Shown: positions 1,001 to 60,179, counted from the stretch's first letter. The stretch is 64,000 bases of DNA from Bacilli bacterium (GCA_900770925.1 CAAGLY010000002.1:18942-82941); one strand, 5' to 3'. The notes: generated from the sequence alone by a model not told the origin. Numbers and translations are program-made.

Positions 1001-1936
1001 ATGAACTACGTTTTCTTTGATATCGAATGTGCAAACTGTATTCAGGGCGAAGGAAAGATCTGTTCTTTCGGCTATGTTAAAACCGATGAAAACTTCAATG
1101 TCATCCAGGAACAGGACATTTTAAGGAATCCGGCAGCCCCTTTCCTTCTAGGCAATGCCAAGAAAGGCAAGGGAATCACCCTTGCCTATCCTCTTTTCCG
1201 TTTCCGGGAATCTCCGCTTTTCCCCCGCTTCTATAAGCAGATAAAGAAACTGCTTACGGATCCGGATACTCTTGTCTTCGGTTTTGCAGTAGATCAGGAT
1301 GCTTCCTATGTTTCCTATTCCTGTGCCCGTTATCATCTTCCTTATATCCAGTTTAAGTTCTTTGATATTCAGAAGCTTGAAAAGGAAATCAATCACCGGA
1401 AGAATGCAAGCGGACTTCAGGCCTTGATTGAAGAATACGGAGAGGGTGTCTTTACCTATCATCGATCAGAAGATGATGCCTTAAGGACTAGGGAAGTCTT
1501 TAAGCACAGGAGTAAAGCGAGGAACAGGTCGGTCAAGGAAATCTGGGAGAAGTATCCAGAGTGCATCAATGATACAGAGAGACTTCTTCAGCATCTTCAG
1601 GATCAGAAGAAGAACCGGGAAAGGAAGAAACGGAGGGTGACACGGAGGGAGGCTTTCTACTCTCTGCCTTGCCCTCAGGCGAATATCAACTGTTATTCTG
1701 CTCTTCTCTGGGGAAAGAAGTTCTTCTTTACGGCAAAGGTATTAAAGGATCAGAAGTTCAGGGATGTCCTATCTAAGAAGAGAGAGAGGTTCTTTAAAAA
1801 GGGCGGTAATCTGACAAGAGATTTCAAGGAAGCGGATTATGTTGTTCTTCATAGCCCGGCTGATAAGCGGCGGGCAAGCGAAGAACATCCGGAAACCGTC
1901 TTCCTTTCCTTTGAAGAAGTGAGGAAGGAACTCTAG
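1001..1936 (+). CDS. DnaQ-like DEDDh 3'-5' exonuclease with a basic C-terminal BRCT-like domain
   Basis: Exo I motif is FFDIE. An Exo III-like YHRSEDDA motif carries the Tyr/His plus Asp. The C-terminus is K/R-rich and reads WGKKFFFTAKVLKDQKFRDVLSKKRERFFKKGGNLTRDFKEADYVVL, which fits the BRCT consensus. Confidence 0.55.
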   Translation: MNYVFFDIECANCIQGEGKICSFGYVKTDENFNVIQEQDILRNPAAPFLLGNAKKGKGITLAYPLFRFRESPLFPRFYKQIKKLLTDPDTLVFGFAVDQDASYVSYSCARYHLPYIQFKFFDIQKLEKEINHRKNASGLQALIEEYGEGVFTYHRSEDDALRTREVFKHRSKARNRSVKEIWEKYPECINDTERLLQHLQDQKKNRERKKRRVTRREAFYSLPCPQANINCYSALLWGKKFFFTAKVLKDQKFRDVLSKKRERFFKKGGNLTRDFKEADYVVLHSPADKRRASEEHPETVFLSFEEVRKEL

Positions 1937-2132
1937 TTTTCATGATTCGCTTATCTTATCGGTAAAGGTTGCTTCTTACTGTTTTCCGTATGAAGATTAA
2001 GAAAATTTGGTTTAATTCAGATACTTTTTGCGTTAGAATACTAAGCAGATAGCCAATGAAAGAAACAACAGGGCTGTCATTGAATTGATAAGAGAACAGA
2101 ATCCTAAGGAAGAAAGTTTTCTTCAAGGGGTA

Positions 2133-2161
2133 TTGTAATCGCTTTCAATTCCATTTATAAT
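2133..2161 (+). promoter_or_regulatory. sigma-A-type promoter (TTGTAA, 17-nt spacer, TATAAT) for the HPr-like gene
   Basis: TTGTAA is at 2133-2138 and TATAAT at 2156-2161, with a 17-nt spacer. An RBS (AAGGAAAAG) lies 5 nt before the ATG at 2183. Confidence 0.45.
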
Positions 2162-2182
2162 CTAATTGCAAGGAAAAGAATT

Positions 2183-2449
2183 ATGGCTACATTCAAAATC
2201 AAAGTTACCAACATTGGCGGACTTACTTCACGTTCCAGCGCAGAATTAGTCGAAGAGGCTAATCATCATAAATGCGAAGTCATCAGGAAATTAGATGATG
2301 GCGAAGAATGCGATCTCAAATCCATCAGGAATGTCTTCGGTGTCCATCCGATTCAGCAGGGCGAAGTTCTCACTATCGTCTGCACTGGTGACGACGAAGA
2401 AGCTGCTGTCGAAGGCTTCCAGCGTTTAGCTGAACAGTACAGCTTCTAA
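2183..2449 (+). CDS. HPr-like phosphocarrier paralog (Crh-like) with Thr where the catalytic His15 should be and Ser47 retained
   Basis: The 88-aa protein aligns with HPr and Crh over GLxxRPA, KSIMGxM and IxxxGxDEE. The site reads GGLTSRSS instead of GIHARPA. The LKSIRNV serine is conserved. Confidence 0.65.
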   Translation: MATFKIKVTNIGGLTSRSSAELVEEANHHKCEVIRKLDDGEECDLKSIRNVFGVHPIQQGEVLTIVCTGDDEEAAVEGFQRLAEQYSF

Positions 2450-2778
2450 TCCAACCGACTTCCATTGGCCAAGTGGAATAGATGATTCGGTGCCGATCAG
2501 GGAAGGGATGACTATACGTTCCGTGTTGGGATGAGATGTGAAGTTCTGGGATTATACGATCCGGGATGTATTGTGCCGTTACGATATGGGATGAGATGTA
2601 AGCTGAGAAGAGAAGTGCCGTTACGAGCTGACGAGACGTTATGTTGACTAGATGGAGACGAAGTCTGGATTAACCCCTACTTTTGTTTCGACGGAGGAAT
2701 ATGGGAAGTACCCTTTCGATTCCGGTGACGCATGGGTTGGCGCGCTAACCTCACATTCATCTAATAGGTAAAAAATAA

Positions 2779-2802
2779 GGGAGCCGACGGGCTCCCTTTT
2801 TT
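2779..2802. terminator. Rho-independent terminator, bidirectional
   Basis: The hairpin is GGGAGCC-GACG-GGCTCCC, followed by TTTTTT on the + strand and preceded by an A-run. It terminates the HPr-like transcript 330 nt after the stop, and also the minus-strand two-gene unit ending at 2809. Confidence 0.75.
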
Positions 2803-2808
2803 CTGTGA

Positions 2809-3177
2809 TTAGAACAGCGGATTGAATAAATCCGTAATGGTCTTGTAGTTTTTCTGCTTAAAGGGGAACCTCCCCTTTAAAGCATAGTAGGTGTTATCCG
2901 AGTACCTGATCGTAAGGAAGAACTTCAGGGAGAAATCAGCTCTGTTATCTTCATAGAGGAGCGCACAGAAATCATCATCGGTGCTGTTTTTGACAGAATT
3001 GATGACTTCCCTTACTTTATCCTTCTCTTTGTCGGTTAACGGACGTGTCCCCTTAGAATTAGTCAGTATCCATTTGTCTTTGCCCGTATCGATTTCCAGA
3101 GACTGAGTCTTCTCGATGGATTCGGGGTCTCTTTTCCAGAAGCGGATGAATTTAATCGCCATTGGTCCTCTCCTCAT
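2809..3177 (-). CDS. hypothetical protein. The start is probably the internal Met of MAIKF at about 3162.
   Basis: The ORF overlaps the upstream zinc-ribbon gene by about 26 nt and is followed by the strong terminator. No domain was recognised. Confidence 0.4.
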   Translation of the reverse strand: MRRGPMAIKFIRFWKRDPESIEKTQSLEIDTGKDKWILTNSKGTRPLTDKEKDKVREVINSVKNSTDDDFCALLYEDNRADFSLKFFLTIRYSDNTYYALKGRFPFKQKNYKTITDLFNPLF

Positions 3178-3697
3178 CTGTCTCGAAGAACTGTTCGAAG
3201 ATCATTGGCAGGATTTTGAAATAAGGCGGGAAACGGTTTGTTCCCTTGTAGACTTTCTCAGGAAGGATAGAAAGAGAGAAGCCGAGCTTGATTTCGTACT
3301 TTGCGTTTCCGCTAGGAAGGAGAAGCCCTAATAATTCCGGTTCCCAGTCTAAGATATAGAGCTTGCGGAAAAGAAGGGTCTTCAGTTCCGGAAAGATTGG
3401 AGCGATGTTCCTTGGTTCGAAAGGCTGCCTCCTACCGTTTTTATCAATTGTGGAAGCGGATAGCATGACTTTCTCATTGCTTTCCTTATGGATCTTGATC
3501 TGTCTAGTGAAACCTTCTTTGTCTGTCTTCGAATAGAAAAAATCAGAAAGATTCTCTTCGTACTGTCCGATGGTTGTGCCATCATCGACTCCGAAGTCTT
3601 TATGGCAATCTAGACATTCAAAGCCATGGGTTCCTAATTTCTTATCCCTGAACGGCTGAGTGTTGTCTTTTCCGCAGCGTGGGCAGATTTCGTTCAT
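3152..3697 (-). CDS. hypothetical protein with an N-terminal Cys4 zinc ribbon
   Basis: The N-terminus reads CPRCGKD...CLDCHKD, with two CxxC pairs. There is no other recognisable domain. The start overlaps the rsuA-like stop by 4 nt. Confidence 0.45.
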   Translation of the reverse strand: MNEICPRCGKDNTQPFRDKKLGTHGFECLDCHKDFGVDDGTTIGQYEENLSDFFYSKTDKEGFTRQIKIHKESNEKVMLSASTIDKNGRRQPFEPRNIAPIFPELKTLLFRKLYILDWEPELLGLLLPSGNAKYEIKLGFSLSILPEKVYKGTNRFPPYFKILPMIFEQFFETDEERTNGD

Positions 3698-58329: not shown

Positions 58330-58671
58330 CGTTGTTTCCTATCTCTTCTATTATCGTTTTTTCTATGGAAAAAGGAAAGATAGGAAAATGAGAAAATTAT
58401 TCATTGCTGTTTTTTCCTTTTGATCTGGGCACAAAAAACAGAAGCATAAAAAGTCCGGCTTTTACCCGCTTAGAATACCTAGTCAAGAAAAAAATAAAAA
58501 AATATATGGGGATAATAAAAAAGCCATTTCATTTGACTAAAAATACGATGGCCACGATAAAAATCACTATTACTTGGTAGCGCTTACCATTTTTAAAAAT
58601 AGAAATGCCGTCCGGATTTTCGATTTCCTGACCTTATAATGTTCCTGTCATCGCGAGATGACTTTATCGTT

Positions 58672-58742
58672 TCTATTCGTATAATTACCCAGATTGGTGG
58701 GAAGTCTCTACGCTGTGGACCGCAAATCCAGCACTACGAATA
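58672..58742 (+). promoter_or_regulatory. purine riboswitch aptamer, guanine class (C at the specificity position)
   Basis: P1 is UUCGUA/UACGAA. J1-2 is UAUAAU. P2/L2 is CCCA-GAUUGG-UGGG. J2-3 is AAGUCUCUAC. L3 is ACCGCAAAU. J3-1 is ACUA. These match the xpt-type consensus. It lies about 95 nt upstream of the BMP nucleoside ABC operon, and a possible TATAAT sits at about 58635. Confidence 0.75.
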
Positions 58743-58835
58743 AAAAACAATCAATCATCTTTTTTCATTTTTTATTTAAAAAAGAGATTTTCATCCGTTC
58801 TTGGTAATCAAAGGCCAAAAAGGAGAAAATTCAAA

Positions 58836-60179
58836 ATGAAAAAAGGTCTTAAGTTTGCTGGTCTGGCTCTTTTATCTGTTTTAGCAAGGACGGGATGCAC
58901 AAAAGGCGGAGATTCTACTGCTACTGCTGGAAGCGAGAAACCTGCAAGCACGCTTAAAGTCGGCTTAATCTGTGTCGGTGATGAGACTGAGACCTACTCC
59001 AAGGCCCACATTGATGGAATCAAGGCAGCTGCTGCTAAGCTTGGAGCTACTGTCATTTATAAAAACTCTGTTCCAGAAGGAACCCAGGTTGTTGATGCCT
59101 GCACGGAATTAAAAGAAGCTGGCGCACAGCTTATTTTCACCAACTCCTATGGCCATCAGGATTATGCCTGTGCTTTTGCTAAAGATAATCTGGATCTTAC
59201 CATTGTCGCTGATACTGGTGATTATGCTGCTATCTCTGGACTTTCCAATCTCAAGAATGCTTTCACCAACATCTATGAAGCACGTTATGTCTCCGGTGTT
59301 GTCGCTGGAAGGAAACTGAAAGAGCTCAATGCTGCTGGAAAGATTGAAGCTTCTAGCAAGGATGCTGCTGGAAACATCAAGATCGGCTACGTTGGTGCCT
59401 ATAACTATGCTGAAGTCGTTTCTGGATACACTGCTTTCTATCTTGGTGTCAAGGAAGGCTTCGAAGCAGATAATGTTGTCAGGGAAGTCAAATATACCAA
59501 CTCTTGGTATGATCATGATGCTGAAAATACTGCTGCCAAGTATTTAAGGTCCCAAGGCTGCGTCATCATTGGCCAGCATGCTGATTCCACTGGTGCACCG
59601 GAAGCTGTCGAAGAAGAACACAATAAAGGCAAGGAAGTCTATTCTGTTGGATACAACATTGATAGGCTTTCCAAGGCTCCGACCGCTGCATTAACCTCTT
59701 CCACGAATAACTGGGAAAAGTATTATGAGTATGCCATTGGACAGTTCAAGAAAGGCGAATCCATTGCTGTTGACTGGGCAAAAGGATATGCCGATGATGC
59801 TGTTGGTATCACTACTCTTGGTCCGAATGTTGCTGAAGGAACCAAGGCTAAGGTTGATTCCCTTGTCGCTGAAATCAAAGCTGGCACCAAGCATGTCTTT
59901 GATACCTCTAAGTTCACCATCACCGGTGCTAACAAGGACAACATCAACAATGCCGGTGCCACTATTGATGAAGCAACCGGACATGTCACTAAGAACAGGG
60001 TTGACTTCTCTTACAAAGATTGGACCCAGGGCGGAAAGGTCATCTATCAGGGTGAGACTGTCGACACTGTCAAGAAGAGCGGCGATGTCAGCTACGTCGA
60101 AGAATCTGTCAAACGTTCTGCTCCTTACTTTGCTCTTCGTATTGATGGTATTAAGGAAACTGCCGTTGATGCCAAGTAG
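58836..60179 (+). CDS. BMP-family (PnrA/TmpC/Med-like) nucleoside ABC transporter substrate-binding lipoprotein
   Basis: The signal peptide carries a lipobox (LARTGC). The region VGLICVGDETETYSKAHIDG...AQLIFTNSYGHQ is typical of BMP/PnrA. The RBS is AAAGGAGAAAA. Confidence 0.85.
   Translation: MKKGLKFAGLALLSVLARTGCTKGGDSTATAGSEKPASTLKVGLICVGDETETYSKAHIDGIKAAAAKLGATVIYKNSVPEGTQVVDACTELKEAGAQLIFTNSYGHQDYACAFAKDNLDLTIVADTGDYAAISGLSNLKNAFTNIYEARYVSGVVAGRKLKELNAAGKIEASSKDAAGNIKIGYVGAYNYAEVVSGYTAFYLGVKEGFEADNVVREVKYTNSWYDHDAENTAAKYLRSQGCVIIGQHADSTGAPEAVEEEHNKGKEVYSVGYNIDRLSKAPTAALTSSTNNWEKYYEYAIGQFKKGESIAVDWAKGYADDAVGITTLGPNVAEGTKAKVDSLVAEIKAGTKHVFDTSKFTITGANKDNINNAGATIDEATGHVTKNRVDFSYKDWTQGGKVIYQGETVDTVKKSGDVSYVEESVKRSAPYFALRIDGIKETAVDAK

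Follow-up and report, generated by a model that had tools for sequence, protein, structure and literature searches.

What is the roughly 350 nucleotides (nt) of RNA that follows an HPr/Crh-like gene in a 64,000-nt stretch of DNA from a Bacilli bacterium (GCA_900770925.1 CAAGLY010000002.1:18942-82941)? The whole stretch is called the window here, and positions are counted from its first letter. A preliminary description had seen a structured, repeat-containing region with four GGGAUG motifs between the stop codon of this gene and a terminator, had proposed a small RNA (sRNA) derived from the 3' untranslated region (3'UTR), a protein-sequestering RNA (it had noted a likeness of the cores to CsrA/RsmA sites) or a degraded repeat element, and had stated that no nearby gene explains it. 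Comparison with related genomes indicates that the element is a divergent member of a lineage-specific RNA family, which is not in Rfam 15, and it is very probably a functional conserved RNA. The best explanation as a whole, to which we give an even chance, is a lineage-specific RNA downstream of a Crh-like HPr gene, whose phased arrays of short units would serve as a protein platform. Of the earlier proposals, a functional RNA that uses the terminator of the mRNA and possibly binds protein fits best, whereas the degraded repeat and CsrA fit poorly.

A search with the HPr-like protein retrieved relatives of the locus at 51-94% identity, 41 in genomes and 26 in metagenomes; the metagenome scan, which added the latter, gave no further lineage of the window's own clade. 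Their sources are all uncultured gut Bacilli (Bacilli, 'Mollicutes' or Candidatus Enterosoma according to the records), which probably belong to the RF39-type group. It is evident that the gene order is conserved: the HPr-like gene, a gap, and a convergent operon for proteins of ~122 and ~175 amino acids (aa) and a pseudouridine synthase. An element of hairpin and arrays lies in this gap in 36 of the 41 genome loci and 23 of the 26 metagenome loci (HPr identity of at least 51%), and where HPr identity reaches 64% or more its type and strand are nearly always the same. It is absent from L033, L037, L038, L041 and L106. The RNA element always has the HPr-like gene as its upstream neighbour, and the earlier statement about nearby genes was incomplete in that about 45 related genomes hold a noncoding RNA in the same slot downstream of this gene.

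The RNAs of the family range from ~150 nt (L004, L009) to ~750 nt (L008, L032, L040). They carry the hairpin UAUAUCA-UUGGCCA-UGAUAUA, followed by AGUCGAGACG and CCCUUUC; longer versions add a UGCUGAGA-loop hairpin whose stems covary, and most long members have this hairpin together with a long terminator hairpin with a conserved AAUU-GUUG-AAUU apex. In the family alignment of 31 distinct sequences, the 5' hairpin is 88.9% paired and two of its pairs show compensatory changes. Moreover, nine U.G pairs occur in it, which would be A.C on the opposite strand, so the RNA lies on the plus strand. C-G, U-A and G-C replace one another at one pair of the apical stem in the 3' hairpin, and such compensatory changes in the other modules argue that the family is a real structured RNA. 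Rfam 15 gave no match in the element at gathering scores, and for window positions 1900-3300 only chance-level matches at E <= 10. For 18 relatives at gathering scores the only matches were to the signal recognition particle (SRP) RNA, elsewhere in the loci, and for the long member L016 nothing relevant appeared at E <= 10 (OLE, ROOL, GOLLD, raiA, 6S, tmRNA and RNase P included). ARAGORN detected no tRNA or tmRNA, and a description of this RNA was not found in the literature. A scan of viral contigs with the hairpin motif gave a single match, inside the coding sequence (CDS) of an integrase, which was dismissed as chance.

The window's copy (2454-2802, plus strand, ~345 nt) is shortened and divergent, and consists of a 5' hairpin, ~150 nt of arrays, a 3' domain of 100 nt and an intrinsic terminator, in this order (Table 1). 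Its clade, made up of the window and the sister lineages L001-L003 (found again as L081-L083), has a stem UUCCA/UGGAA around the family loop UUGGCCAAG, a 3' domain of its own and a plain terminator. The loop contains the 8-nt self-complementary UUGGCCAA, and the 9-mer CATTGGCCA (2463-2471; CAUUGGCCA in the loop) is common to the window hairpin and the family loop. The loop 9-mer CAUUGGCCA was expected 0.34 times in the 64 kb and occurs twice; the second CATTGGCCA, at 59567, was rejected as a chance occurrence inside a 447-aa CDS and without hairpin arms. Moreover, the window and its nearest outgroup L005 have in common the motifs GGAGGA(A)UAUGGGA...GUUUCG and UUACGAGCU. We place the window in the family because of the same slot and strand, the loop 9-mer, the arrays and the motifs in common with L005. 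A profile search (nhmmer) with the 3' region of the clade matched only the three sister lineages. In the 3' domain, which has no 5-nt phasing, a Shine-Dalgarno (SD)-like GGAGG (2693-2697) precedes an AUG at 2701 that opens a 15-codon open reading frame (ORF; 2701-2748). RNAalifold folds this domain into a long irregular hairpin, with no informative variation among the four nearly identical sequences. Free energy alone gives no support to the word 'structured' for the window's copy, the z-score of the minimum free energy (MFE) being -1.0 on the plus strand and -0.8 on the minus strand.

To which parts does conservation point? We compared the window segment by segment with L002, L003 and L001. 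Identity (in this order) was 96%, 96% and 74% in the 5' hairpin region and 93%, 93% and 90% in the 3' domain; in the arrays it was 72%, 73% and 57%, with ~60-70 gap columns in addition. For comparison, the third codon positions of the HPr-like gene are 75% identical to L002 and 62% to L001, the convergent 122-aa CDS 58%, 58% and 55%, and an exonuclease CDS 74%, 74% and 45%; for flanking CDSs the values span 55-80%. By these identities the 3' domain is the most conserved DNA nearby and the arrays the least, and the pattern indicates that the 5' hairpin and the 3' domain are under strong purifying selection. Moreover, nine strain contigs with an identical HPr protein differ by single-nucleotide polymorphisms only in 2561-2617, with a concentration in array 3, and in the A-run before the terminator, and the 5' hairpin and 3' domain are invariant across all nine.

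With regard to the repeats, GGGATG does occur at 2505, 2528, 2563 and 2588, and the direct repeats GGGATGAGATGT(G/A)AAG (a 15-16-mer at 2528 and 2588) and GTGCCGTTACGA (2573 and 2615), as well as the terminator, were found where the preliminary description had placed them. Over the whole 64 kb GGGATG is not enriched (34 observed against 30 +/- 6 expected), and the four copies on one strand within 84 nt are a local cluster, with ~0.12 expected per 353 nt by our own arithmetic. The true regularity is a G at every fifth nucleotide, in pentamers of the form G-R-K-A-H, and not GGGAUG itself, which arises where the unit GGGAU meets the opening G of the next. The direct repeats are local duplications within the arrays, the 23-nt pair being spaced by 60 nt and in phase. 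Of the generalised unit GRKAHG, segment 2450-2802 contains 13 copies, compared with 1.17 per 353 nt in the rest of the window, and three of the four G-phased runs of at least seven pentamers in the 64 kb (both strands) fall in this segment. Autocorrelation of G with G at lag 5 gave z = 5.4 for the whole element relative to dinucleotide shuffles; in 2482-2660 it reached 1.82 times the expectation (z = 5.7, p < 0.001, with 0 of 1000 dinucleotide shuffles as high), and the longest in-phase run there is nine pentamers (shuffle p = 0.008). Arrays 2 and 3 are mutually in phase (2558 - 2518 = 40).

The phasing is kept in the sister lineages despite many indels (lag-5 z = 2.2 in L001, 3.3 in L002 and 4.0 in L003), so that conservation in close relatives was found, with the repeats themselves being least conserved in sequence. 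Across the family, lag-5 z rises to 6.9 and in-phase runs reach 23 (L012), 21 (L007), 18 (L040) and 13 (L028) units, and array length varies between none and more than 40 units. Most frequent among the units are GAGAC, GAUAC, GAGAA, GGGAU, GAGAU, GGGAA and GAUAU, which give the consensus G-R-K-A-H. Of the indels of at least 4 nt between close relatives, 24 of 62 are multiples of 5 (20% expected), and L004 and L084, as well as L014 and L092, differ by exactly 10 nt.

In the explanation that we favour, the phased pentamers would be multivalent single-stranded sites for an oligomeric RNA-binding protein that forms rings or filaments, one pentamer unit being read per protein subunit with a geometry as that of TRAP on (G/U)AG-N2-3 repeats. 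As a scaffold or a titrating sponge, the RNA would have a capacity set by array length, and the hairpin and the 3' domain would contribute to folding or stability or allow a second interaction, for example self-association between loops. The ring of TRAP has 11 subunits and binds RNA that wraps around it, through 11 GAG/UAG repeats set 2-3 nt apart (PMC3913778). The RNA under study resembles the TRAP targets of Bacillus (trp leader, trpG, trpP and ycbK) in its tandem short units with a fixed step of ~5 nt; GAGAC, GAGAU and GAGAA correspond to GAG plus a 2-nt spacer, as in TRAP-type units, arrays of 7-23 units would be enough for one or two rings of TRAP size, and some relatives have a terminator and a downstream gene after the arrays, as in TRAP-binding segments. 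On the other hand, GAG is common among the triplets but GGG, GAU and GUG are also frequent, and the units GGGAU, GAUAC and GUGUC are without the critical A2/G3 of TRAP targets. Moreover, the number of units is not fixed at 9-11, the window's arrays lie in a 3' region without a downstream plus-strand gene, and there are extra conserved structured modules. The frequency of GGGAU, GAUAC and GUGUC units argues for a specificity (G1, A4, non-G5) other than that of TRAP.

Several observations weigh against this explanation. The window has neither of two family modules, the UGCUGAGA-loop hairpin (by inspection) and the long terminator hairpin with the AAUUGUUGAAUU apex, and a covariance model built without its clade gives the window hairpin 7.9 bits (E ~7, rank 6 in the window); the 33 bits under a model that includes its own clade are high by construction. 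As for the protein, tblastn gave no homologue of TRAP, CsrA, Hfq or HutP in the 64 kb or the fetched loci, the window has no mtrB-like ORF, and the unit G-R-K-A-H differs from the (G/U)AG of TRAP. Predicted pairing in the window is 0.64 for the arrays and 0.60 for the rest, so the arrays are not less paired there, though they are slightly less paired in most relatives. In addition, the phasing could partly be a mutational by-product of pentamer slippage. The step to a multivalent protein-binding platform with a 5-nt register, which is drawn by analogy, seems to us plausible at somewhat less than an even chance.

Some of the same facts could suggest a decaying remnant, that is, a pentanucleotide microsatellite or a degenerating family copy with no present function: array evolution is rapid and its indels tend to be multiples of 5, the two modules and a gene of ~170 aa found downstream of the RNA in relatives are missing from the window, and the model built without the clade fails to recognise the window hairpin. 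However, no flanking coding sequence is as conserved as the 3' domain and the 5' hairpin, which are also invariant in nine strains, and the units are heterogeneous, not identical products of slippage, with the G-R-K-A-H consensus held across distant lineages. We regard a remnant as very unlikely, and the 'degraded repeat element' of the preliminary description is contradicted by the purifying selection on these two parts.

Which protein might be titrated? The preliminary description had compared the GGGAUG cores with CsrA/RsmA sites, and four copies in 84 nt, one of which (GGGAUGU at 2563) fits the 3' half of RUACARGGAUGU, could be taken as GGA sites for the titration of CsrA, in the manner of CsrB or RsmZ. 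In this consensus, obtained by systematic evolution of ligands by exponential enrichment, ACA and GGA are 100% conserved and GGA is preferably in a hairpin loop, and CsrB has 18 sites, many-repeat sponges being an established kind (PMC4347634). Like CsrB, CsrC and RsmX-Z, the present RNA is noncoding and has a Rho-independent terminator and many short purine-rich motifs, whose copy number varies between species, so that a logic of titration is plausible. However, GGA is found at the four sites and ACA at none, and both the MFE structure and the pairing probabilities place all four GGGAUG motifs mostly in stems, as far as prediction goes, and not in loops. The units of the homologous RNAs are mostly GAGAC, GAUAC, GAGAA and GAGAU, which have no GGA. 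The conserved feature is thus the 5-nt phase of G and not GGA/ACA, and the motifs are phased linearly rather than set in hairpin loops, and no Rfam match was obtained. For csrA and fliW, tblastn with the B. subtilis proteins gave no match below E = 0.5 in the window or 160 loci, which is a weak negative since only 64 kb of this genome was covered. A CsrA/RsmA-sequestering RNA is highly improbable and we consider it refuted as a family assignment, whereas the general idea of a protein-titrating RNA survives.

Is the RNA then simply a part of the HPr-like mRNA? A promoter-like site (2133-2161) lies 5' of the HPr-like gene, and the sole plus-strand terminator between its stop codon and the convergent gene is a bidirectional 9-bp hairpin (2777-2798) with a T-run, whose stem shows compensatory G-C to A-U changes among relatives. 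Since nothing that resembles a promoter or a terminator lies in the window between this stop codon and 2777, the RNA is most likely the 3' part of the HPr-like transcript, and co-transcription is the simplest reading of the sequence in this genome. No plus-strand gene follows beyond the terminator in the window. Such an arrangement would suit a cis-acting 3'UTR or a base-pairing sRNA derived from it, in which the 3' domain and terminator would be released or serve as an sRNA with a seed, or would govern the stability of the mRNA, and the arrays would be a dispensable linker. A conserved part that abuts the terminator is the typical layout of 3'UTR-derived sRNAs, and in the window conservation peaks in the 100 nt just before the terminator. 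Base-pairing with targets or with the ribosome could involve the SD-like GGAGG and a CCUC element. However, several relatives have an HPr terminator and a promoter-like site before the RNA (L006, L008 and L016): sequence inspection gave a terminator-like hairpin between the HPr gene and the RNA and a promoter-like site 5' of the RNA in L006 and L008, and in L016 a promoter-like TAGTCA-18-CATAAT comes directly after the HPr stop. Because of these separate signals the RNA is not generally a UTR, and it appears to be an independent gene in some relatives. Moreover, the UTR or sRNA reading leaves unexplained why phasing is kept amid the turnover of the arrays and why arrays exceed 100 nt, and we judge it unlikely.

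In many relatives a conserved motif (R)GAAGUC-N-AUA(N)U occurs between the HPr stop and the 5' hairpin (L016 4268-4297), with similar sequences in L019, L020, L023, L024, L014, L028, L029, L008 and L032. It coincides with the -10 box of the promoter-like site (TAGTCA-18-CATAAT in L016). The window's clade is without this motif, and its hairpin arm GACUUCC is the reverse complement of GGAAGUC.

The loop of the 5' hairpin raises another alternative, a self-assembling 'ornate' RNA, in which the palindromic loop (UGGCCA) and other palindromes would drive homo-oligomerisation, the arrays would be structural or spacers, and the function would lie in the architecture. The core of the loop remains palindromic despite its replacement, being UGGCCA in most members, UUGGCCAA in the window, UGCGCA in L091 and GAUC in L004 and L084, and long members have further conserved palindromes and covarying hairpins. 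Retroviral dimerisation-initiation sites are kissing hairpins with a 6-nt palindrome in a loop of 7-9 nt and with lineage-specific alternative palindromes. They resemble the family loop, although the window's palindrome can instead lengthen the stem (UU/AA around GGCC). Homo-oligomers were lately demonstrated for the large bacterial RNAs ROOL, GOLLD and OLE (PMC12286853), and OLE variants ('variant 2') are known from RF39, a clade of uncultured gut bacteria (PMC11332333). Long members of the family (600-750 nt) are like OLE, ROOL, GOLLD and raiA in having several covarying hairpins, in belonging to uncultured or anaerobic Bacillota, in a fixed gene neighbourhood and in self-complementary loops that possibly support homo-oligomers. 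The family is unlike them in its extreme length variation and low-complexity phased arrays, with a window copy of only ~345 nt, and in that no covariance model matched even at E <= 10; OLE itself was rejected as the identity of the element since its model gives no match. In addition, any near-perfect hairpin has a palindromic apex and there are two independent loop replacements only, with a joint chance of ~0.01 by our own estimate, the arrays are too variable in length (0 to more than 40 units) and too rich in purines for a fixed architecture, and the window version is short with an MFE z-score that is not significant. Self-assembly as the main function seems quite improbable to us.

The family terminator deserves mention beside these palindromes. 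It is a long hairpin with an invariant apex NNAUU-GUUG-AAUNN and compensatory changes in the NN pairs (for example L007 5004-5048, L016 4976-5018, L039 4922-4964 and ~20 others); it has a conserved 3' internal loop (GUAAC), and GGAUCC or CAUCGGAUG often comes just before it. An apex of this kind is unusual for a plain terminator and suggests, from sequence, a second recognition element.

Could the region instead encode a small protein? There are two candidates, the 15-aa ORF at 2701-2748 behind GGAGG and a 38-aa Cys-rich ORF at 2531-2647, which is present as the preliminary description had reported. GGAGG-N3-ATG is kept in four clade members, and MGSTLS is common to them. However, a 1-nt indel shifts the frame of the 15-codon ORF in L001 with identical nucleotides downstream, the nearest outgroup L005 reads only ATG GGA TGA, and most family members are without a start codon at this position. 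For these reasons the 15-codon ORF is not the cause of the conservation of the 3' domain. The 38-aa ORF falls in a segment that is deleted from L002 and L003, and neither ORF matches Pfam. A small protein is hardly credible as the explanation, and since the small ORFs are not conserved, the earlier view of a noncoding plus-strand RNA that ends at the terminator is supported.

Returning to the protein platform, what would it mean for the HPr-like gene? The encoded protein has Thr at the position of His15 (GGLTSRSS), retains the context of Ser46 (LKSI) and scores under the cut-off of TIGR01003. In its widest form our proposal is an undescribed class of RNA of 150-750 nt in uncultured gut Bacilli with reduced genomes, in which the arrays would wrap or polymerise an oligomeric protein with TRAP-like geometry and new specificity, the loops would self-associate, and the module would be tied to the Crh-like HPr paralogue and possibly to carbon-status signalling. 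This is tentative and, taken with all its parts, rather doubtful. If true, it would give a little-studied branch of uncultured gut Bacillota a new family of conserved noncoding RNA, with an unusual and easily testable signature, a G at every fifth nucleotide that is held while the sequence turns over. A further prediction would be an RNA-binding protein that forms rings or filaments, has a 5-nt register and does not belong to the TRAP family; synthetic (GAGAC)n or native arrays would be a simple bait for it. Moreover, constant linkage to a Crh-like HPr paralogue that has lost His15 and kept Ser46 would suggest a route from carbon-status signalling to RNA-based regulation in reduced genomes. 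For annotation, the 'empty' intergenic regions of ~350 to 750 nt in these metagenome-assembled genomes should be marked as an RNA gene.

Table 1. Positions of the features in the window and, where a locus number is given, in relatives
Feature	Position	Strand	Remarks
HPr/Crh-like gene (88 aa)	2183-2449	+	Pfam PF00381, E = 4e-14; stop codon 2447-2449
5' hairpin	2460-2478	+	stem UUCCA/UGGAA 2460-2464 / 2474-2478, loop UUGGCCAAG 2465-2473; from family alignment
Array 1, 5 units	2490-2514	+	GUGCC GAUCA GGGAA GGGAU GACUA; holds GGGAUG 2505
Array 2, 7 units	2518-2552	+	holds GGGAUG 2528 and first copy of GGGAUGAGAUGU
Array 3, 9 units	2558-2602	+	GAUCC GGGAU GUAUU GUGCC GUUAC GAUAU GGGAU GAGAU GUAAG; longest run; holds GGGAUG 2563 and 2588 and first GUGCCGUUACGA
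Array 4, 7 units	2605-2639	+	GAGAA GAGAA GUGCC GUUAC GAGCU GACGA GACGU; holds second GUGCCGUUACGA
Clade-specific conserved 3' domain	2671-2768	+	CCCCUACUUUUGUUUCGACGGAGGAAUAUGGGAAGUACCCUUUCGAUUCC...GGUUGGCGCGCUAACC...; from identity to L001-L003
Intrinsic terminator	2777-2804	+	AAGGGAGCC-GACG-GGCUCCCUU plus U-run; also serves convergent gene 2809-3177 (-)
Convergent gene, 122 aa	2809-3177	-	no known function
Convergent gene, 181 aa	3152-3697	-	no known function; overlaps the 122-aa gene
Purine riboswitch aptamer	58657-58756	+	RF00167, 51.6 bits
447-aa ORF	58836-60179		downstream of the aptamer
~170-aa gene of relatives	L005 4710-5243; L013 4430-4975; L014 5026-5550; L016 4992-5561; L017 4478-5002; also L019, L020, L028, L029, L007	+
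SRP RNA of relatives	L001 237-333; L005 637-722; also L006, L014, L020, L039	- (L001, L005)	RF00169

In 10 relatives a protein of ~170 aa starts just past the RNA terminator on the plus strand. The proteins are 30-68% identical to one another and have the motif Y(I/V)TRKDEQE..GYS; they matched no Pfam or NCBIfam family, and a word-indexed search gave only two database relatives. The gene has its own promoter-like site in L016, is confined to RNA-bearing loci and is absent from the 64-kb window, and its product is a candidate partner of the RNA.

One metagenome scaffold (L170; ENA ERZ28634832 scaffold_3446) encodes at 194-460 an HPr-like protein identical to that of the window, with an RNA of the L002 type (short array version) and another downstream neighbourhood (dCMP deaminase). 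This arrangement suggests recombination at the locus or a chimeric assembly. Moreover, a bacterial small SRP RNA (54-61 bits) lies ~3 kb upstream of the HPr-like gene in relatives, a position whose equivalent would precede the start of the window.

Together with the pseudouridine synthase gene, the two convergent genes next to the RNA make up an operon that every relative keeps, even where the RNA is absent. At 55-58% nucleotide identity between the window and the sister lineages, the 122-aa gene shows an unusual divergence, and the 181-aa protein has an N-terminal CxxC...CxxC zinc ribbon. Elsewhere in the window, the purine riboswitch aptamer upstream of the 447-aa ORF is the only Rfam match at gathering score.

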